Positions 17,028 to 31,731 of a stretch of 32,000 nucleotides of DNA are shown here, one piece after another (position 1 is the first letter of the stretch; every line of letters starts with the position of its first letter). The translations under genes and the position numbers were made by a program. The stretch lies in NCBI GenBank assembly GCA_964588325.1, contig CAZPOR010000002.1, positions 242,919 through 274,918 of the forward strand, written 5' to 3'. The notes beneath the pieces are model-generated. The model worked only from the letters and a program-made list of their open reading frames with translations, did not search any database and was not told the origin of the DNA. The stretch comes from an uncultured Desulfurivibrio sp. GTDB taxonomy: Bacteria > Desulfobacterota > Desulfobulbia > Desulfobulbales > Desulfurivibrionaceae.

Positions 17028-18302
17028 TTAATGGACCGAACAGGAGATGCAGGGGTCGTACGCCCTGACCAGCATTTCCGCCAGCAGTTCGATTTCCCGG
17101 TCTTGCTTGCCGGTTTTGGCATACTGGCCAGCCAGCGCCTCGATGTCGTGCAGGATGTTGGCGTGATTCTGACTGGTGGGGATAACGCAATCCGCCTTGA
17201 CCACCTTGCCGTCCTTGTCGAATGTATAATAATGGTAGAGGATGCCCCGGGGAACCTCCACCGCGCCGACCCCCTCGCCTTTTTTTGCCTGCACCGGCTG
17301 GCGCGGTTCCTGCCAGGGATTGCCCAGCAGGGTGTCGATGAGCCGCACGGAATCAAGAACCACCTGCACGCATTCCACCAGTTGAGCCACATTGCACATG
17401 TACGGGTTATGGTTCACCGGGACAAGGCCGAGGAATTTGGAAATCTCCCGTGCGGTGGGGTGGAGCTTGGTAAAGTTGTTGTTCAGTCGGGCCAGGGCGC
17501 CCACGGCAAAGGAGGGCCGGGAGAGTTTGCTCAGCTTGGAGGTGAAGCCCTTTTGGCAGTATTCATTGGTCATGGCCCGGTACTGGTGCTCTTTTTTTAC
17601 GACCCCATCCGTTGAAACAAGCCCGCCGCCGATAAAGGGATAGTTGCTCTCGCCCTTGAGGGAGACGAATTCCGTCTCCCGGCTGAAGTCGGGGATGGCA
17701 AAGGTTTTAAACAGTTCCGCCGAGGCCAGCAGATCAGGGACCGAGGCCATCAATCGCTGGCGTATTTTTTCCAGCTCGCTCTTTTCCGGCAGCATGGTGA
17801 AGCCGCCCACCACGGTGCGGGTGGGATGCAACCGTCTGCCGCCGATAATGTCGCAGGCATCGTTGGCCAGCAGCTTGAGGCGCAGGGCCCGCTGCACCAC
17901 CTCCGGATGGGTCTTGGCCAGGGGCAGCACGCTGCCCGCGCCGAGGAAATCCGGGGCGGCCAGGAAATAGAGATGCAGGATATGGCTCTGCAGGGTTTCC
18001 ATGTGCTTGAGCAGGAGCCTCAGGCTCGCGGTCTGGGGCGAGGGGGTGATGCCGAAGGCGTTTTCCACGGCCCGGATGCTGGCCAGGGTGTGGCCGATGG
18101 AACAGATCCCGCAGATCCGACCGCAGATGTAGGGTGCGTTTTCCCAGTGCTTGCCCACCAGCATGGCCTCGAAAAAACGAGGGGTTTCCACCACCTCCCA
18201 TTGCGCCTTTTTGACCACCCCGTTCTTGATGCTGATCGTGATGTTGCCGTGGCCCTCCACCCGGGTCAGGTGGTGGACATTGACCTCGCAGGAGAGCTTC
18301 AT
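17028..18302 (-). CDS. [NiFe]-hydrogenase large (alpha) subunit, group 3 cytoplasmic type
   Basis: The N-terminal LTRVEGHG and RICGICSIGH (first CxxC Ni ligands) are present, with C-terminal DPCISCSVH (second CxxC plus His). All ligands are Cys; there is no TGA. The start at ATG 18302 (AGGGGG RBS) overlaps the stop of the small subunit (ATGA). Confidence 0.9.
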   Translation of the reverse strand: MKLSCEVNVHHLTRVEGHGNITISIKNGVVKKAQWEVVETPRFFEAMLVGKHWENAPYICGRICGICSIGHTLASIRAVENAFGITPSPQTASLRLLLKHMETLQSHILHLYFLAAPDFLGAGSVLPLAKTHPEVVQRALRLKLLANDACDIIGGRRLHPTRTVVGGFTMLPEKSELEKIRQRLMASVPDLLASAELFKTFAIPDFSRETEFVSLKGESNYPFIGGGLVSTDGVVKKEHQYRAMTNEYCQKGFTSKLSKLSRPSFAVGALARLNNNFTKLHPTAREISKFLGLVPVNHNPYMCNVAQLVECVQVVLDSVRLIDTLLGNPWQEPRQPVQAKKGEGVGAVEVPRGILYHYYTFDKDGKVVKADCVIPTSQNHANILHDIEALAGQYAKTGKQDREIELLAEMLVRAYDPCISCSVH

Positions 18303-19171
18303 GATTTTTTCCCCCTGGCCGCGGCTTTTTTGCACCCAGAGGGTATACGTTTCGTTTGCGCAGGCAAGCTGCTCAACTCAGCTATATTTTTGGGGCGGAA
18401 GGTGTCGGCGAAAGAAGCAAAGCCGCCGAAACATTCCAAGCGGTCGAGGATGGTTTCGCGGTCAAAGCCATGGGTGTGCATGATCTCTTCCAGTCGTTTG
18501 AGATTTGCTCCTTCCGCCGGGCCGCGGCATCCCCAGCACCCCCTGCGGTTGCTGGTGCACCAGGCGTCGCAGCCCGCCCGGGTGACCGGGCCCAGGCAGG
18601 GTTCGCCGAGCTCGAACAGGCAGATGTTTTCGTTGGCCTTGCACTCCATGCACACCGGGTATTCGGGATGGCGCACCGTCTTGCCCACCACCAGATCGGT
18701 GACGATGCGCTCCACCTCTTCCTTCTTGATCGGGCAGCCGAAGATCGAAAGGTCCACCTGGACAAAATCCGCCAGGGGATGCACCTCCATGGTCTCGATG
18801 GGGAAGTCGCCGTACACCTCTTTTTTGACCCAATCCAGATCGCGGAAGCGGTTTTTGAGTTGGTTGACCCCGCCGAAGCAGGCGCAGGAGCCTAGGGCGA
18901 CCAGGATTTTGGCATTCTTGCGGATTCCGGTGAGCCGGGCGATCTCGTCCTTGCGGGTGACGCTGCCCTCGACAAAGGCGATGTCGCAGGTGTCGCTGCG
19001 TTCAGTCATGCCTTCGCGGAAGTTGACGATCTCCACCAGATTGAGAAAATCCAGCAGGGTCGCCTCGTTGTTCAGAAGCTGCAACTGGCACCCCTCGCAG
19101 GAGGATAGCTCGAAGAAGCCGACCTTTGGCCGGGCAAGGGGGACGCCAAGGTAGGAGAGTGGTTCGCTCAT
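18299..19171 (-). CDS. [NiFe]-hydrogenase small (delta) subunit, group 3 type
   Basis: VGFFELSSCEGCQLQLL, LGSCACFGG, and CMECK...C...GPVTRAGCDAWC are Fe-S cluster ligand patterns of short cytoplasmic small subunits. The start is ambiguous. ATG 19171 (MSEPLSY..) is listed here. The track start 19336 would add a 55-aa, very basic extension with low GC3 that contains a 16-bp inverted repeat. Confidence 0.8.
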   Translation of the reverse strand: MSEPLSYLGVPLARPKVGFFELSSCEGCQLQLLNNEATLLDFLNLVEIVNFREGMTERSDTCDIAFVEGSVTRKDEIARLTGIRKNAKILVALGSCACFGGVNQLKNRFRDLDWVKKEVYGDFPIETMEVHPLADFVQVDLSIFGCPIKKEEVERIVTDLVVGKTVRHPEYPVCMECKANENICLFELGEPCLGPVTRAGCDAWCTSNRRGCWGCRGPAEGANLKRLEEIMHTHGFDRETILDRLECFGGFASFADTFRPKNIAELSSLPAQTKRIPSGCKKAAARGKKS

Positions 19172-19176
19172 CTCAG

Positions 19177-19284
19177 GTAAGCGGTCACAAGGCACGGCAT
19201 CTGCTTTGTTATCGGCCTGAGTGCATAGCGATGTATGGCCCACAGGCCTTTGTCGCGCATCTGCCGCACCCTGTGACCGCTTAC
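19177..19284 (-). other. Long-range 16-bp inverted repeat (predicted mRNA hairpin) in the hydrogenase gamma-delta spacer
   Basis: The + strand GTAAGCGGTCACAAGG (19177-19192) and CCCTGTGACCGCTTAC (19269-19284) are complementary. In the minus-strand transcript all 16 positions pair, one as G-U. On the + strand the same position would be an A-C mismatch. The 3' arm ends 5 nt before ATG 19171. Confidence 0.55.
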
Positions 19285-19337
19285 GGCTTGGGCGGGTGCG
19301 CTTGACTTTGTCGTGCCCCTTGAGATCCTTTCCCATC

Positions 19338-20240
19338 TCAGATCGCCTCCTTGAGGTTCATCACCGACCAGTAGTCAAAGACCGGGCCGTCCAGGCAGGT
19401 GTAGGTGGAGCCGATGTTGCAGCGGCAGCATTTGCCCCGGCCGCAGTGCATGCGGCGCTCCAGGGAGACGAACATTTTCTGCATGGGCAGCCCGGCCTCG
19501 GTCAGCATCTTGCAGACGAAATGGAACATGACCGGCGGCCCGCAGACGATGGCGTAGGTGTTTTCGCGCAGGCTAGAGGCTTGGGCGATTCGTTCCCGCA
19601 GGAGTTCGGTGATCAGGCCGGTGTGCCCCTTCCAGCTCTTGTCCGCTGTGTCCACCGTGATGCCGAGGGTGATGTCGAAGCGTTTCCATTCCTCGTACTG
19701 GTAGGTGAAGAGCAGCTCCGCCGGGGTTTTGGCGCCGTACATGATGTCCACCCGCCCGTATCGGCTCCGGTTTTCCAGCACGGCCAGCAAGGGAGAGCGC
19801 AGGGGCACGATGCCCAACCCCCCGCCGATGAGCAGGATGTCGTTGCCCTGCATTTTTTCCAAGGGGAAAGAGGTGCCGAACGGCCCGCTGATCCCTATCC
19901 TCGTGCCCCGTTCCACCCGGTTTAAAAAATTGGTGAAATTGCCCACCGCCCGGATGCACAGCTCAAGGTCGCCGTGCCGCACCGGGGAAGAGGAGATGGA
20001 AAACGGCGCCTCGCCGATGCCCGGCAGTTCCAGCATGACAAACTGGCCCGGCTTGAAGGAAAAACGGTTCCGTTGCTCGGGGTCGATGATCTGGATCTGG
20101 TAGAGCTTTTCGCTGGCGGTGAGCGGGTAGATGCTGGTGATCTCGGCGGGCAGGGTGTACTCGAAGCTGCCCGGGTCCTGCTTGCGGTGATCGCTCATGT
20201 CGTGGCTGAGTATGTCGATGAAGTGGAGTTTGTTCTGCAT
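19338..20240 (-). CDS. Hydrogenase gamma subunit: FAD/NAD(P)-binding oxidoreductase with C-terminal [2Fe-2S] (PyrK/AsrB-like)
   Basis: The flavin-reductase fold motifs are GQFVMLELPGIGEAPFSISS and ILLIGGGLGIVPL (GGGxG). The C-terminal CGRGKCCRCN...TCLDGPVF cluster motif is present. The gene lies between the beta and delta subunits, as in Pyrococcus-type sulfhydrogenase operons. Confidence 0.85.
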   Translation of the reverse strand: MQNKLHFIDILSHDMSDHRKQDPGSFEYTLPAEITSIYPLTASEKLYQIQIIDPEQRNRFSFKPGQFVMLELPGIGEAPFSISSSPVRHGDLELCIRAVGNFTNFLNRVERGTRIGISGPFGTSFPLEKMQGNDILLIGGGLGIVPLRSPLLAVLENRSRYGRVDIMYGAKTPAELLFTYQYEEWKRFDITLGITVDTADKSWKGHTGLITELLRERIAQASSLRENTYAIVCGPPVMFHFVCKMLTEAGLPMQKMFVSLERRMHCGRGKCCRCNIGSTYTCLDGPVFDYWSVMNLKEAI

Positions 20241-21392: not shown

Positions 21393-22205
21393 TTATCTTG
21401 CGACGACGAAAGATTCGGGAAAGCCCGTGCCCGCCAAGGTTTGTTCCATCTGTTTTGCTGCGGTCAGGGTTGAGCCAGCTTTGACCTGAACGCGGTAGAA
21501 TATCTGATCGCCCCGTTCATGGCGAACGGTCTCGGTCTCCCTTCCCCCTTTGTTCATCCTGTCCTTCAGGCGATCGGCATTTTCCTGGACGGTGAAGGCG
21601 CCGATCTGGACATAAAAATCGCCCTTCTGGAAATCCTCGTGGGGCAGAAAACGGGCTGCGATCTTGTTGTCGGCAAGTTGGATGGTTTCCGCCTCGCCCA
21701 AGGCGGTGATCCGGACCCGGCCGGTTCCGTCCTTGATGATGCCGAGATCCCGGGCCACATTGTAGGAGAGATCGATGATTCTGTTCCCCACGAAAGGGCC
21801 GCGGTCATTGATCCGCACCGTTGTGGAGCGGCCGTTGTCCAGGTTTTCCACCAGAAGCCTGGTGTTCATGGGCAGGGTCTTGTGGGCCGCGGTCCAGCCG
21901 TACATATTGTAGGTCTCGCCGTTTGAGGTCTTGCGGCCGTGGAATGGATTGCCGTACCAGGAGGCAGTGCCGGTTTCGACGAATCCTTCTGCCGAGGGCA
22001 GCGGATAGTAGGTCTTGCCCTCTATCTGATAGGGCCTTTGGGTGGCAGGAATGCGGCCTGCCTTGGCTGCGGGTTTGGGCCGGGGCGGTGTCGCCTGTGG
22101 GGGCGGGGTGCTGGTGAGCACGGTGGTGCAGCCGGAAAATGCGGCCCCGCACAGAAACAAAAGGGCAAGGAGGAAGATTGTCCGGATATGTTTTTGGCAG
22201 ATCAT
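21393..22205 (-). CDS. rlpA: Septal ring lytic transglycosylase RlpA-family lipoprotein with C-terminal SPOR domain
   Basis: The signal and lipobox-like segment is LLALLFLCGAAFSGC. The DPBB core reads GTASWYGNPFHGRKTSNGETYNM...AAHKTLPMNTRLLVENL.NGRSTTVRINDRGPF. The SPOR-like tail is FYVQIGAF...A..L. Confidence 0.88.
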   Translation of the reverse strand: MICQKHIRTIFLLALLFLCGAAFSGCTTVLTSTPPPQATPPRPKPAAKAGRIPATQRPYQIEGKTYYPLPSAEGFVETGTASWYGNPFHGRKTSNGETYNMYGWTAAHKTLPMNTRLLVENLDNGRSTTVRINDRGPFVGNRIIDLSYNVARDLGIIKDGTGRVRITALGEAETIQLADNKIAARFLPHEDFQKGDFYVQIGAFTVQENADRLKDRMNKGGRETETVRHERGDQIFYRVQVKAGSTLTAAKQMEQTLAGTGFPESFVVAR

Positions 22206-23740
22206 GGTTGTGTCTCTGTGGGCAGATTGGACTTGAGCCGTTCGCTGAAGAAAGCCCCGGCCTTGCCAACGGTGTGGGGGGTGTAGGGGAGATAGCGGTG
22301 TTGCTTGGGCTCCACGCCCACATTGTCGAAAAGCACCTTTTTGTTTGCGTCCAGCATGGAGAGGTGCAGGTCCAGGATGGGGCGGAAGATGTGGAGCCTG
22401 CCATCCGGTCCAACCCCGACCAAGGGGCTTTCCCAGCGGCGCAGCTCATATCCCTTGAGCCACAGGCTTGGGATTGGCGTGCCGGTGATCTTGTCCTTCA
22501 GGGAAGAGGCTTGACCGGTGGGATTGTCCAACTGTGCCTCCACCTCGCGGCTGCCCTGCACACTGAGCCGGGACCAGGCGGGATGGCTGGGGTTCTCGGT
22601 GCGGAGCAGGTGGGTCCCCTGGTCGTTAAAGGACCACTGGCTGTGGCACACGGTGCAATGCGCCTTTTTTTCGTACTGTTTGTGGGCAGGATGGACAAGC
22701 CGGGGCACCACGAGTTTTTTGCCGTTCAGCCGGGTGGTGAGGATGAGCTGGTCGTCTTCGACTTGCAGGTTGTCCAGGGGAATGGGCAACCCTGTGCGCC
22801 AGCCGTGGCAACTGAGGCAGGTCGCCGCCTTTTCTTTTTTTCCGGCGCCACCGTGTCCGCCCATGAGTTCCGCCCCGGTGTGGCAATCGATGCAGGCCAT
22901 GCCTTTCTGCTGGTGGATGTCCGGAGCCAGTTGATGGAACTCCACTCCGTAGGGCCGGGTTTCGCTGCCATCGGTGCGGTAGGGGGTGCGGTATTCCAGG
23001 TTGAAGTCGTGCTCAAAGCGGCCGTAATAGTCGGCCCCCACGAAGTTGCCGTAATGGCAGTGCAGGCACTGGCTGTCTGCCGGCGATTTGACAAAGGCGT
23101 GGCCATTCATTTTGCCGTTGGTGTAGGCGAGGTGGCAGGCGGCGCAGCCCGTGCCGCGCACTGTTTCCGGGTAGACGTCGCCGGAGTTGTATACATGACA
23201 GCGCAAGCAGCGGCGGCGCAGCAGGTCGTCGGCCAGGTCGAGGGGGGAGGAGATTGTTTGAGGAATCGGGATCTCCGCCAGAGTGGCAAGGGGGGCTTGG
23301 GCGCCGAAGGCCGACCGGACAAGATTCACCTCGTTTTGCGCGGTGAAATGCACCGAAAAGGCGGTCTCGGCCACCTGCCGGGCATGGCAGGTGCCGCAGG
23401 CTTTCTGCATCCGGTCCGGATGGGCAGGCTGGCTGATGAGCCCGGCATGGGCCTGCTCCTGCGTTGCTCCCTTCGGGTTTCCGCCATGGCAGCCGGTGCA
23501 GGCCGAGGCGTGGCGGGAGTCGAGCTGGATTGTCGGATGGCATCCCAGGCAGCCTGGCTGGCGCACGGGCTGGGGCACAGCTTTTTGCGCGGCGGGTTTT
23601 TCCGGGGGTCTGCTTTCCCTGCACCCTGGAAAAGCAAGGGCCAGCAGGCAGAGAGGCACCAGGATGGCGCGGAATTTCGGGCAGAGACAAAAAGGCATGG
23701 CGGAACGTGTGACCTCGGGATTAAAGAATGTTTCCGCCAT
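22202..23740 (-). CDS. Secreted multiheme cytochrome c with nine CxxCH motifs and a heme-free C-terminal domain
   Basis: Nine motifs: CLGCH, CTGCH, CGTCH, CLRCH, CAACH, CLHCH, CIDCH, CLSCH, CTVCH. The N-terminal hydrophobic signal ends ..LALAFPGC. The last ~145 aa have no heme motif. The start is either ATG 23740 (AAGG upstream) or ATG 23698. The gene overlaps the rlpA start by 4 nt. Confidence 0.85.
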
Positions 23741-24083
23741 ACTACCTTATTTAGCGCAAGGGCAACAAGCCGCAATTGCATCGGAAAAGGAAGAACGTAA
23801 CCGCGCTCGCGTTGTCCCTGGCCCTTCGGCAATTTCTCTTGCCGGAATGGGCATTTTCCCTTGGACAAAGGAGGGCTCAATACTGTATTTTAATGGGAAT
23901 GTAATGCGGCCCGATTGTATCGGGCTGTCGTTTTTGTTCCCCTGCTTGTTTGTCGATTGCTTGGTGGAATCCCGGCGCAGGCCCCGCTTCCCCTGGCGTG
24001 CGTTGCGGCGATGGGTTGTGTTGCGCAGATTGAAAGCCATCCACCGTGTTTTTTTTCTTATTTTACGAGACCGGCGCCATTTT

Positions 24084-25739
24084 ATGAAAACTACCAATCA
24101 GACCCATCGAACCAAGTTCATCTTCATCACCGGCGGCGTTCTTTCGTCCCTGGGCAAAGGGCTGGCAGCCGCGTCCATCGGCGCCCTGCTGGAGAGCCGC
24201 GGGCTGTCCATCACCTTCCAGAAGCTGGACCCGTACATCAACGTGGACCCCGGCACCATGAACCCCTTTCAGCACGGCGAGGTGTATGTCACCGACGACG
24301 GGGCGGAGACGGACCTTGATCTCGGCCATTACGAGCGGTACACCTCCGTGGCCCTGGGCCAGCGCAACAACTACACCTCGGGCCGCATCTACCATTCGGT
24401 GATCAGCAAGGAGCGGCGCGGCGAGTACCTGGGCGGCACCGTGCAGGTGATCCCGCATGTCACCGACGAGATCAAGCGCGCCATCCTCCAGTTTGAAGGC
24501 GAGGTGGACGTGGCCATCATCGAGATCGGCGGCACCATCGGCGATATCGAGAGCTTGCCCTTTCTGGAGGCAATTCGTCAGTTCCGCACCGATGTGGGGA
24601 GGGAAAACTCCCTGTACATCCATGTCACCTGGGTTCCCTATATCAAGACCGCAGGCGAGGTCAAAACCAAGCCCACCCAGCACAGCGTCAAGGAGCTGCG
24701 CGCCATCGGCATCCAGCCCGACATCCTGCTCTGCCGCACGGAAAGCCTGCTGAGTAATGAGCTGAAGGCCAAGATTTCCCTGTTCTGCAACGTGGAGAAG
24801 GAGGCGGTGATCACGGCCCGCGACGTGGACAACATCTACGAGGTGCCGCTCTGCTTCCACGCCGAGGGGCTCGATGACATCATCCTCAATAAGCTCAATA
24901 TCTGGACCGGATCGCCGCGTCTGGACGCCTGGCAGGATCTGGTCGAGAAGGTTAAGCACCCCAAACGCGAGGTGGAGATCGGCATCATCGGCAAATACGT
25001 CGATCTGACCGAATCGTACAAGAGCCTGCACGAAGCCCTGGTGCATGGGGGCGTGGCCAACGAGGCCAAGGTGCGGCTCCGCTATGTGAGCGCCGAGGAG
25101 ATTGAAGAGAAGGGCGCCGACGGCCTGTTGGCCGGGTGCCATGGGGTATTGGTGCCGGGCGGTTTTGGCAGCCGCGGGGTGGCGGGCAAGATTCAGGCCG
25201 TGACCTTTGCCAGGGAGAAAAAGATCCCCTATTTCGGCATCTGCCTCGGCATGCAGTTGGCGGTGATCGAGTTCGCCAGAAACGTCGCCGGCATGAAAGA
25301 CGCGGACAGCACCGAGTTCAGCCTGTTGACCAAGCATCCGGTTATCTATTTCATCAAGGAATGGTACGATTACCGCACCGGAAAAACCCAGATCCGCGAC
25401 GAAGCCACCGACCTGGGCGGCACCCTGCGGCTGGGGGCCTATCCCTGCAAGATGGTGGAGAATACCTTTGCCCACGCGGCGTACGGCACGGGCGAGATCC
25501 AAGAGCGGCACCGGCATCGCTATGAATTCAACAATGCCTTCAAGGAGGAGCTGGTGAAACATGGGCTCATCATCAGCGGCACCTCCCCGGACGAAAAGCT
25601 GGTGGAGATTGTCGAATTGCCCGACCATCCGTGGTTTCTCGGCTGCCAGTTCCATCCGGAATTCAAGTCCGGCCCCATGAAGCCGCATCCCCTGTTCACG
25701 AATTTTATCAAGGCAGCTTTGGAGAATGCCGGTCTGTAG
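24084..25739 (+). CDS. pyrG: CTP synthase
   Basis: [71 protein letters not shown] is the classic PyrG N-terminus. The glutaminase domain motifs GICLGMQ and HRHRYE are present. The true start is ATG 24084 (MKTTNQ). The 267 codons upstream in the track ORF are an open-frame artefact. Confidence 0.95.
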
Positions 25740-28953: not shown

Positions 28954-29202
28954 ATGCACACCAAAGAAGAGCTGTGTGAGAAGATCAAGGCTGTTTTTCC
29001 GGAGATCGGCGCCTGCGGCATCGATCTCAAAGTTGATTACGACAAGAACAACAAGGCCTGGGTCGTTGATCTCAAGAAAGACAAACATGAGCTCAAGACC
29101 TTCCTGGAAGACTCCGAAGCGCAACAGTGCATGGACGGCAAGCAATGTGTGTCTCTGGGCCTGCAGATCGGCCAGCTCAGGAAGAATATTGAGCAACTGT
29201 AG
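28954..29202 (+). CDS. Hypothetical small protein A (82 aa, four Cys)
   Basis: A strong AGGAGG RBS lies 6 nt before the ATG. GC3-rich codon usage matches neighbouring genes. I cannot assign a family. The 138-aa antisense ORF 28882-29298 has no comparable RBS. Confidence 0.6.
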   Translation: MHTKEELCEKIKAVFPEIGACGIDLKVDYDKNNKAWVVDLKKDKHELKTFLEDSEAQQCMDGKQCVSLGLQIGQLRKNIEQL

Positions 29203-29346: not shown

Positions 29347-29649
29347 ATGGACGTTAAAGATTATTGCAGGAATGTGGATACGGAACTCACGGCGTGGAAA
29401 GCAAAACTGTACAACGTCATCCGCCAGATGGATAAACTGCCGACAGGCGACAAGCAGCGGGTGTATGAAAAGATCAACGGCCTGAACATCGTCATGACAG
29501 AGCTTGATGATCGACTTGACCAGTTGCGGACTGCATGTCCAACGGAATGGAGCCCGGCGCGGAAAGAAATCAGTAGTAAGATGGCGGATCTGGGGAGCAA
29601 GTATGAAGAGACAGCGCGCGAGTTTTTCGACTATGAGATCGGCGGCTGA
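29347..29649 (+). CDS. Hypothetical small helical protein B (100 aa, C-P-T-E-W motif, ends in GG)
   Basis: A GAGGGGTGGAG RBS region precedes the ATG. The residue pattern is heptad-like and charged, and the codon usage looks coding. No family recognised. Confidence 0.6.
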   Translation: MDVKDYCRNVDTELTAWKAKLYNVIRQMDKLPTGDKQRVYEKINGLNIVMTELDDRLDQLRTACPTEWSPARKEISSKMADLGSKYEETAREFFDYEIGG

Positions 29650-29829
29650 CCTCCTGTTTTTTTGTGGGATGCAGGTTGAGTAACAGCATAATTTTAGCGG
29701 CAAACTTCACAGGGAGAATCTCCATGATAACCAGAGGGTCCCGGATTGCAGGGATGACTGCCCGCATCCGGGGCCTGTGCCGACTGTGAGAATTTTTATC
29801 ATTCGCTAGCCACACAAGGAGGGACAACC

Positions 29830-30399
29830 ATGACGGAAAAAATCCAATGGCGTACGGAAATGGACGATGCCCTGTGTCTGGGGCAGAAGGCGGGGAAACC
29901 GATCCTGCTCGATTTTTTCAACCCCAACTGAATTGGCTGCCAACAGATGGATACAGTTACGTATCCCGAAAGCAAGGTTGTCCGGTTCATCGAGGAAAAT
30001 TTTATCCCGCTGCGGCTTTTGTCCGACAGCAAGCCCCATTCGGAGAAATACAACGTCAAGTGGACGCCCACCCTGATAACCTTGAGCCCGGAAGCCCAGG
30101 AACATCACCGGACCGTGGGTTTTTTGGGGCCGGAGGAGTTGATTCCCTCGCTCCTGCTGGGGCTGGGCAAATACCATTTTGAAAATGACCGTTTTGACGA
30201 GGCCCTGTCCCGCCTTGAGCAACTGGTTGACGGGTATGGCCAAAGCGGCAGCGTCCCGGAGGCCATTTTTTTGTGCGGCGTCTGCCGTTACAAGCGCTCG
30301 CATGATCCAAAGCCGCTGAAGGCCGCCTACGAAAAATTGAGCGCGGCTTTTCCAGACAGCGAATGGACCAAGCGCGCCTATCCCTATCGGCTCCTGTGA
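29830..30399 (+). CDS. Thioredoxin-fold (Thioredoxin_7-like) protein with TPR-like C-terminus; in-frame TGA at 29929-29931 read as selenocysteine (U34-I-G-C37)
   Basis: ATG 29830 is preceded by AAGGAGGG at a 6-nt spacing. Codons 1-33 give MTEKIQWRTEMDDALCLGQKAGKPILLDFFNPN, then TGA, then IGCQQMDTVTYPESKVVRFIEENFIPLRL, in the same frame as track ORF 29947-30399. The segment GKPILLDFxxxxCxxCxxMD...V..FI...F is the classic thioredoxin-like active-site neighbourhood, and the TGA sits at the first Cys position. The hairpin GGATAC-agttac-GTATCC (29949-29966) lies 17 nt after the TGA. Confidence 0.75.
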
Positions 30400-30502: not shown

Positions 30503-31393
30503 ATGCAAGAAAACCGTTACGATTGCATCATCATCGGGGCAGGGCCTGGGGGGTTGCAGGCTGCCATCCATCTTGCCCGCTATAACCGGAAGGTCATCCT
30601 CCTCGATCACGGCGGCGGCAGGACACGCCATGCCCTGCATATCGAGAACTATCTCGGTCTTGAACGCACCTCCGGGAAAGAACTTGTTGATACCGGCATC
30701 AGGCAGATCACATCCTTCGGCGCCGAGTTCAGACGCGAGGATGTTGCCTCGGTTCGGGTCGAGAACGGGTTTGTTGTGACTACGGAAAAGGGGCGTTACC
30801 AAGCGCCCTATGCCATTGTTTCCGCCGGCGTTGTCGAGCATCCGCCGAAAATCAAGGGGATGAACAGATTTTTCAGCCGGACGGTTTTTACCTGCGTTGA
30901 CTGCGACGGCTACCGCACCACCGGCAAGAAGCTTGTCATTCTCGGCGATTCCCTCGAAGCCCTGCGCCTCGCCTTTGCCATGCGCCAGATGTTCACCCCG
31001 GATATCATGCTCATCCTGCCGGCTGGTGTTCTGCCGGACGATCATGCCGATTTGCTGGCCGAGGACGGCATTGGTTTCCTGGCCGGGGCTCCTCAGGAAT
31101 TTCTTGGCCAAACAACGTTGCGCGGCGTGAAGCTGGCAGACGGGCGGGAGATTGCCTGCCAGGTGGTCATGCTCAGTTATGAGTACACCGTGAACGATTC
31201 CTGTCTGGCAGGGCTTGCACTTGCGCGGGAAGGCAGCGGCCGCGAGCTTGCAACCGACTCTGCCTGCGAAACCTCTGTTAAAAACCTCTTTGCCTTGGGT
31301 GCCCTCAAGGCGGGCAAGGCCCAGGCTATTATTGCCGCCGGTCAGGGCGCCATGGTGGGCATCGAGATCAACCGCCGGCTGCTGAATCTGTGA
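30503..31393 (+). CDS. Thioredoxin-reductase-like flavoprotein (FAD motif and CxxC present, NADPH-binding motifs absent)
   Basis: The N-terminal YDCIIIGAGPGGLQAAIHLAR is the FAD GxGxxG motif. The redox-active FTCVDCDG corresponds to TrxB CATCDG. Where TrxB has GGGNSA...HRRD, this protein reads VILGDSLEA...MLILPAG. Confidence 0.85.
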   Translation: MQENRYDCIIIGAGPGGLQAAIHLARYNRKVILLDHGGGRTRHALHIENYLGLERTSGKELVDTGIRQITSFGAEFRREDVASVRVENGFVVTTEKGRYQAPYAIVSAGVVEHPPKIKGMNRFFSRTVFTCVDCDGYRTTGKKLVILGDSLEALRLAFAMRQMFTPDIMLILPAGVLPDDHADLLAEDGIGFLAGAPQEFLGQTTLRGVKLADGREIACQVVMLSYEYTVNDSCLAGLALAREGSGRELATDSACETSVKNLFALGALKAGKAQAIIAAGQGAMVGIEINRRLLNL

Positions 31394-31434: not shown

Positions 31435-31731
31435 ATGAAACGTCAGGTCGAAATGGAAGAAACCATGCTGCGTGCGCATCGGGAGTTCCTGGAGCATCTT
31501 GAGAAATCCCTCGGCTTGCTGGCGAAGGATATTGATGAAGCCAAGGAGATGACGCATATCTGCACCGATGAGTGGTGTCGGGCCACCGAGGGTGTGCTTG
31601 ACGAGTTGGCCAAGGTCATTTTTGCGGTCAGCGAACCGCGCTGGCTCTCCACGGAAGACTCGAAAAAGATCAGCGGGTTGCGCCATCGCATGCACGATCT
31701 GTACGCCCGCTACAAAGCAGTCAAAAAATAA
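31435..31731 (+). CDS. Hypothetical small helical protein E (98 aa, C-T-D-E-W-C motif)
   Basis: An AGGAGGA RBS lies 6 nt before the ATG, and the codon usage looks coding. It sits 15 nt upstream of the oxidoreductase gene. No family recognised. Confidence 0.6.
   Translation: MKRQVEMEETMLRAHREFLEHLEKSLGLLAKDIDEAKEMTHICTDEWCRATEGVLDELAKVIFAVSEPRWLSTEDSKKISGLRHRMHDLYARYKAVKK

Follow-up and report, generated by a model that had tools for sequence, protein, structure and literature searches.

A stretch of 32,000 nucleotides from an uncultured Desulfurivibrio sp. (contig CAZPOR010000002.1, positions 242,919 to 274,918; the window hereafter) raises the question of whether two neighbouring open reading frames (ORFs) are separate genes or the two parts of one gene containing a codon of unusual meaning. 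In the mechanical ORF list, the region 29830-30399 of the plus strand is broken into a 33-residue ORF and a 150-residue ORF starting at ATG 29947, and an in-frame TGA lies between them at 29929-29931. Comparison with related loci makes it very probable that 29830-30399 is one selenocysteine (Sec)-encoding gene with a selenocysteine insertion sequence (SECIS) hairpin just downstream of its UGA. It encodes a thioredoxin-fold selenoprotein of an ordinary UxxC kind and adds a member to a family already known from prediction.

The first evidence comes from the layout of the gene. ATG 29830 is preceded by a Shine-Dalgarno sequence, AAGGAGGG (29816-29823, plus strand), read from the sequence and separated from the start codon by a 6-nt spacer. 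The 33 codons from this ATG encode MTEKIQWRTEMDDALCLGQKAGKPILLDFFNPN and are followed by the in-frame TGA, downstream of which the same frame resumes with IGCQQMDTVTYPE (IGCQQMD...) and runs as far as the TGA stop at 30397-30399. The full coding sequence (29830-30399, plus strand) would comprise 189 codons including Sec34, for a protein of about 21 kDa, and the conservation of the TGA among relatives assigns the UGA to U34 of a U-I-G-C redox motif. The start Met is aligned among homologues and is encoded by ATG in 62 of 64 genes. The start at ATG 29830, the Shine-Dalgarno sequence, the split frame and the TGA position given in a preliminary description of this DNA all match the sequence. Its proposal of a thioredoxin-fold selenoprotein with a UxxC motif, whose gene the ORF caller divides at the codon for Sec, is now backed by Cys-type homologues and by coding conservation upstream of the TGA.

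A search of a large protein collection returned 1355 relatives of the 189-residue product, which fall into two classes. The close ones are mostly 150 residues long, cover 79% of the query and share the truncation at M40; the others are full-length, at about 189 residues. At the site aligned with the TGA, some full-length homologues carry Cys (CPGC, CIGC, CFGC) and many carry Trp. The Trp forms all come from contigs shorter than 1.5 kb. In the DNA of two such loci, with 'GWIGC' in their proteins P0029 and P0037, the codon is TGA (L001:289-291 and L002:342-344), and no table-11 translation gives the database protein. Since the DNA has TGA and table 11 fails to give the query, the Trp forms are an artefact of gene calling with code 4 on short contigs, and these database entries are further Sec-type genes.

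In a genome scan with one genome per species, at least 554 genomes encode a relative. The best 80 matches were kept, and according to their record titles they belong to Desulfurivibrionaceae and other Thermodesulfobacteriota, which together form the majority, and in some cases to Nitrospirota and Brocadia. A motif search located 78 of these 80 loci, and TGA occupies the codon in 78/78; with the three look-up loci added the count is 81/81, and the window likewise has TGA. A metagenome scan, seeded on purpose with Cys-type proteins, contributed 73 loci, with TGA at the codon in 64, TGC or TGT in eight and TCA in one. Overall, the sample drawn from the two collection scans and two look-ups amounts to 145 related loci and the window, and its Sec-type genes all carry TGA at the identical codon. 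The closest relatives are Desulfurivibrionaceae-type metagenome-assembled genomes, with 94-97% protein identity, the nearest one found being LacPavin_0419_WC90_MAG_56_10 (JAPLJG01). Cultured carriers include Hydrosulfovibrio ferrireducens CB1MN (L016, 88% identity) and Thiovibrio frasassiensis. The preliminary description had suggested checking whether Cys-containing orthologues align Cys with U34, and both the CPGC, CIGC and CFGC forms and the eight TGC/TGT genes do so; these Cys-type homologues are uninterrupted, at 185-189 residues.

A few homologues depart from both states. In the gene for P0039 (L118:2448-3002), TCA (Ser) and ACT replace TGA and ATT, the motif reads GSTGC and the hairpin downstream still forms 6/6 pairs; a Ser form with an intact SECIS hairpin suggests recent loss of Sec. 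P0059 (ARVGC) is without the first redox residue and P0117 (GLTDS) without both.

The simplest competing explanation is that the TGA is a genuine stop, that the real gene is the 150-residue ORF from ATG 29947, and that the 33 codons are a leader peptide or untranslated. Gene callers and RefSeq give exactly this arrangement for dozens of homologues, and an ATG is indeed available five codons after the TGA. Nevertheless, the codons upstream of the TGA do not behave in that manner. Across 64 distinct 189-codon genes, the amino acids of codons 26-32 (LLDFFNP) are retained whereas the synonymous codons vary freely: F29 is TTT in 42 and TTC in 22, N31 is AAC in 48 and AAT in 16, and all four Pro codons occur at P32. 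Protein-level conservation of the upstream segment extends down to about 60% identity, and 79 genes have retained both the reading frame and the length. Such a pattern indicates that the segment is under purifying selection as protein, which cannot be reconciled with a separate gene that begins at M40. Absence of conservation upstream of the M40 equivalent had been named in the preliminary description as grounds for abandoning the selenoprotein; what is found there instead is protein-level selection on the upstream 33 codons. In addition, a product of 150 residues would be without strand beta1 and without the redox motif, which Pfam and a structure model place across the TGA, and Cys-type homologues run through the site without interruption. 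No Shine-Dalgarno sequence stands ahead of M40, and its codon falls within the SECIS stem. A genuine stop is therefore considered very unlikely.

The second line of evidence for Sec at codon 34 lies in the RNA just past the UGA. The hairpin GGAUAC-AGUUAC-GUAUCC (29949-29966, plus strand) starts 17 nt past the UGA and consists of a 6-bp stem (29949-29954/29961-29966) and the loop AGUUAC (29955-29960), with G-U at loop positions 2-3. Comparative analysis strongly supports its designation as a bacterial SECIS element, with SelB binding predicted. In the 64 genes the stem codons are invariant (D41 GAT in 64/64, T44 ACG in 59/59, Y45 TAT in 64/64), codons P46, V50, F53 and P60 beside the stem show near-maximal synonymous diversity, and the frozen bases coincide exactly with 29949-29954/29961-29966. 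All 6/6 pairs form in 122/122 unique 60-mers, compared with 10% after random synonymous re-encoding of the same peptides. Among 112 distinct Sec-type sequences, 672/672 cells are paired, which 0/500 shuffles equal; double-sided changes occupy 31 cells against 7.4 +/- 2.1 expected (again 0/500 shuffles), and slid registers of the stem pair at only 20-65%.

The changes themselves preserve pairing, and at two of the pairs they are compensatory on both sides. In the 112 sequences, pair 23-36 is AU in 80, GC in 24 and GU in eight, and pair 24-35 is UA in 105 and AU in seven. Divergent metagenomic Sec-type genes move from GAT...TAT (A-U) to GGT...TAC (G-C), with GGT...TAT (G-U) as an intermediate, and in GGA...TTC the next pair flips from U-A to A-U, so that a synonymous Gly change is tied to a Tyr-to-Phe change. 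The loop follows the consensus N-G-U-N-(A/U)-C, and 121/122 unique sequences have its G-U. As a decisive natural control, eight Cys-type genes encode the near-same peptide CIGCKQMDAVTFP but with GAC and ACC/ACT codons, and only 3-4 of the six pairs are left. As the Cys-type genes lost the hairpin despite a similar peptide, the constraint belongs to the UGA and not to the protein.

The hairpin also agrees with the published description of such elements. In the bacterial SECIS (bSECIS) model of Zhang and Gladyshev, as given in a 2026 review (PMC13188914, Fig. 2A), the loop has 3-9 nt and the upper stem 4-16 bp, a G within the first two loop positions is usually followed by G or U, the distance from UGA to loop is 16-37 nt, and the minimum free energy (MFE) is -7.5 kcal/mol or lower. 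Here the loop has 6 nt, the stem 6 bp, and G at position 2 is followed by U. The spacing of 23 nt (29932-29954) lies within the range, and the MFE calculated from the UGA, -16.4 kcal/mol over 60 nt and -8.2 over 45 nt, lies below the threshold. Thus the SECIS-like stem-loop of the preliminary description holds in its position, its loop G-U, its covariation and its agreement with the bSECIS model. The alternative pairing offered beside it, AACUG/CAGUU (29926-29930/29954-29958), fares worse: it contains mismatches, no more than 67/106 sequences can form its 5/5 pairs, and it would compete with the hairpin that the comparison supports.

A further explanation accepts translation through the UGA but has a suppressor tRNA, a near-cognate tRNA or an alternative code insert another residue, for instance Trp, Cys or Gly, the hairpin then doing no more than stimulating read-through. 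The 'W' protein versions in public databases would speak for it, as would the fact that the Sec content of the family is predicted only. These 'W' versions are artefactual, however, the DNA having TGA. TGA is also the commonest stop in the window, where it ends 12/23 well-supported genes including the selenoprotein gene itself, and hence does not serve generally as a sense codon. Furthermore, the codon occupies the catalytic Cys site of a CxxC motif and swaps only with Cys in functional-looking homologues, and the hairpin spacing and loop G-U fit the SelB-type bSECIS model. Decoding as another amino acid is accordingly rated as highly improbable. Next to no probability attaches to a pseudogene or to a sequencing or assembly error. 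A lone in-frame stop may resemble a fresh nonsense mutation in one sequence, but this TGA recurs, with intact frames and equal lengths, in about 145 loci that were assembled independently and come from metagenomes and many species-level genomes, which excludes both.

Several observations weigh against Sec insertion and should be set beside the above. The bare hairpin folds at only -6.4 kcal/mol, and 3/6 of its stem pairs are invariant and hence uninformative as to covariation. The long lower stem in the MFE fold of the window (UGAAUUGGC with GUCCGGUUCA) is absent from a 60-sequence consensus fold and is taken as lineage-specific because it is not kept there. Searches of Rfam, with gathering thresholds for the entire window and with E values of up to 10 for 29880-30040, gave no match; that database offers no useful model of bacterial SECIS elements. 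Neither selA, selB, selC and selD nor tRNA-Sec was found in the 32-kb window, a sample whose size makes the result uninformative. The same genes and tRNA were not found in the flanks of 163 related loci, nor in the contig of a relative within 10 kb on each side, and neither of these regions showed a second selenoprotein. The window yielded no second selenoprotein either: 80 candidates of the form ORF-TGA-ORF were inspected, and no other was convincing. Finally, the review grades the family as 'predicted with high confidence', not experimentally verified (PMC13188914).

Two of the genes considered as possible further selenoproteins deserve mention. A NiFe hydrogenase cluster on the minus strand (17028-20240) encodes a large subunit, a small subunit and an FAD/NAD-binding iron-sulfur subunit, and resembles a soluble sulfhydrogenase-type enzyme. 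Its NiFe(Se)-family large subunit (17028-18335, minus strand) was rejected: it ends DPCISCSVH followed by the stop codon and is therefore the Cys form, not [NiFeSe]. The other, at 22022-23740 on the minus strand, is a 512-residue cytochrome with nine CxxCH motifs, followed by TGA and then 59 more open codons. The recently described selenocytochrome MccSep has five haems and a DGUP site, and a Sec-type MccSep has been reported in Desulfurivibrio alkaliphilus, of the same family as the closest relatives of the window. The multihaem cytochrome here (22202-23740, minus strand) was not accepted as a selenoprotein, as it has no DGUP-like site, its extension is of low complexity and it carries nine CxxCH motifs against five in MccSep; its TGA was judged to be an ordinary stop. 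In the related Desulfotalea psychrophila 12 selenoproteins are predicted, including SelD (PMC1794560); this and the Sec-type MccSep of D. alkaliphilus support Sec decoding indirectly. An ordinary UxxC selenoprotein in such a selenoprotein-rich lineage will hence be no surprise to a specialist.

Profile searches, run with the TGA read as Cys, place a thioredoxin fold across the codon. Pfam Thioredoxin_2 (PF13098) matches residues 20-105 with E 8.4e-11 and 42.6 bits against a cutoff of 27 and spans the TGA, and Thioredoxin_7 (residues 7-69) and a DsbH-type model (residues 3-76) likewise align across it. The Thioredoxin_7-type domain of the preliminary description is thus correct as to a thioredoxin-like fold across the TGA, although the best Pfam model is Thioredoxin_2. 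Its 'TPR-like' C-terminal half is in part sustained: the region is predicted to be all-helical, but the tetratricopeptide repeat (TPR) models match residues 106-161 weakly and below their cutoffs. An AlphaFold model of the natural Cys-type homologue P0066, built on a 12-sequence alignment, has a predicted local distance difference test score (pLDDT) of 88.7 and a predicted template-modelling score (pTM) of 0.86. In this model the C/U-x-x-C motif sits at the junction after strand beta1 of the thioredoxin fold, and helices extend over residues 100-187. Taken together, Pfam and the model suggest a thioredoxin-fold domain at approximately residues 1-107 (29830-30150, plus strand), and the model helices and sub-threshold TPR matches an all-helical, TPR-like domain at approximately residues 100-189 (30127-30396, plus strand).

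Neither a signal peptide, a hydrophobic N-terminus nor a membrane segment was found in the 189-residue product, and the model is that of a soluble two-domain protein; without a signal peptide or membrane segment the protein is probably cytoplasmic. The NCBIfam DsbD and TsoB models match the thioredoxin region weakly. None of the curated NCBIfam selenoprotein models matched at cutoff: TsoB scored 40.3 against 805 bits, VPGUxxT types 1 and 2 scored 25.7 against 275 and 25.0 against 350 bits, and the Trx7/PDZ selenoprotein model 17.3 against 300 bits; the family is covered by no NCBIfam model.

Based on these features, a course of events may be proposed. During translation the UGA at 29929-29931 would be recoded to selenocysteine, the hairpin at 29949-29966, itself part of the coding sequence, offering the G-U of its apical loop to SelB-GTP-Sec-tRNA(Sec) when a ribosome arrives at this codon. 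The resulting protein would act as a thiol/selenol-disulfide oxidoreductase cycling through a U34-C37 selenylsulfide, and its helical domain probably selects or recruits partner proteins.

The surrounding genes offer some candidates for such partners. Directly downstream, at 30503-31393 on the plus strand, lies a gene for a flavoprotein of divergent thioredoxin-reductase-like type (Pfam Pyr_redox_2), which carries a CVDC motif. It matches TIGR01292 over its full length with E 1.4e-34, but its 119 bits fall short of the cutoff of 343. The flavoprotein gene directly follows the selenoprotein gene in 19-23 loci, nearly all of them from close Desulfurivibrionaceae-type relatives, and because the adjacency is found mainly in close relatives a functional link is hypothetical; the flavoprotein is possibly the reductant of the selenoprotein. 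Upstream, orf82 (28954-29202, plus strand) encodes 82 residues with four Cys and has no Pfam or NCBIfam match. It is found on the same strand, 0.4-1.9 kb upstream, in about 25 related loci, eight of them from distant lineages at 60-70% identity, and its product may work together with the selenoprotein. A 100-residue ORF (29347-29649, plus strand) lies between these two genes and weakly matches the sll1863-family stress-response domain, at 28.7 bits where the cutoff is 35; the 98-residue ORF at 31435-31731 is not related to it. Among the flanks of the 163 related loci, no operon partner is conserved family-wide, and the neighbourhoods are lineage-specific.

The neighbourhood also varies at strain level. 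A relative whose 150-residue fragment is 98% identical to that of the window carries about 2.1 kb with GmrSD_N and HEPN (RiboL-PSP) genes, which look like defence genes, between the cytochrome and CTP synthase genes (L164:1775-3518). The corresponding gap in the window measures no more than about 370 nt (approximately 23740-24114), and this difference points to a strain-level insertion or deletion.

The chief value of the finding concerns annotation, the relatives being spread over at least 554 species-level genomes. In RefSeq and GenBank the Sec-type members appear as 'hypothetical' or 'TPR' proteins of 149-150 residues, including the RefSeq entry of Thiovibrio frasassiensis, and in the contig of a near-identical relative the caller again yields ORFs of 33 and 150 residues. 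The expectation of the preliminary description that standard annotation would miss the gene is borne out by these truncated public entries. Two wrong public forms exist side by side: the fragment without the catalytic motif, and the false Trp protein from code-4 calling on short contigs. A 'W-for-U' on short contigs could therefore be a cheap flag for hidden selenoproteins. The covariation of the SECIS hairpin provides clean comparative support for a family known from prediction, and could seed a covariance model or an annotation rule.

The novelty of the selenoprotein implied by the preliminary description is not supported, as the same family with an NPGUIGC motif has already been published. 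It is listed in Table 1 of the review as a 'Thiol:disulfide interchange protein' selenoprotein with PF13098, UxxC and WP_011366075.1 (PMC13188914), and on that review's account it goes back to its reference 12 (Kryukov and Gladyshev, 2004). Zhang et al. (2006; PMC1794560) reported the family in Geobacter metallireducens, G. uraniireducens and Syntrophus aciditrophicus, and the sequences in their Additional file 4 read ...LLDFFNPGUIGCKQMDAVTYP...VKWTPT...EHHRTVGF...PSLLLGMGK...YPDSEW.KRA.PY.LL. The window product aligns gap-free over about 185 residues with the selenoproteins of G. uraniireducens (56% identity, E 4e-85) and G. metallireducens (43% identity, E 2e-62), and this full-length, gap-free identity makes it an orthologue of the published predicted family. 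Length (186-190 residues), architecture and best Pfam domain are the same, and the motif NP(G/N)-U-I-G-C-(Q/K)-Q-M-D is common to both with Sec at the same residue, NPN-U-IGC-QQMD of the window aligning residue-for-residue with the published NPG-U-IGC-KQMD. The window copy differs in residue 33, which is N and not G, in one stem pair, where A-U takes the place of G-U, and in its lineage, which is Desulfurivibrionaceae-type here and Geobacter/Syntrophus in the publications. What is added here is the analysis of SECIS covariation and the figure of 554 species-level genomes; neither was found in the publications consulted.

Concerning function, the published name evidently derives from similarity to DsbD-gamma. 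The DsbD-gamma structures (PDB 2fwe, 1vrs, 1uc7), annotated as 'thiol:disulfide interchange protein DsbD', are indeed the closest solved thioredoxin domains in Foldseek, with 27-31% identity and a template-modelling (TM) score of about 0.7 on the target. DsbD-gamma, however, is a periplasmic domain of a large membrane protein, whereas the product here is a free-standing protein of 189 residues with an extra helical domain. A more specific role can be sketched as a speculation of rather low probability, in which the protein would be a cytoplasmic, selenium-dependent counterpart of CnoX-type Trx-TPR chaperedoxins. Its TPR-like domain would hold clients while a highly reactive UxxC centre resolves their oxidised thiols. 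For Desulfurivibrionaceae, recycling would fall to the neighbouring flavoprotein (30503-31393), the two forming a dedicated Sec-based disulfide-reductase pair, and the conserved orf82 could be a client or partner.

The comparison is suggested by YbbN/CnoX of E. coli (PDB 3qou, 3qdn), which resembles the window product in general layout, a thioredoxin fold at the N-terminus and a helical, TPR-like region after it, and provides the top whole-chain Foldseek matches in the PDB, albeit weak ones (E about 5e-6, query TM 0.36-0.40, root-mean-square deviation 11-13 A). The two differ in that identity is 12-15%, YbbN/CnoX has 282-285 residues against 189, and its domains are oriented otherwise. They also differ at the active site, where CnoX has SxxC, not a redox-active dithiol, and the product here has a complete UxxC.

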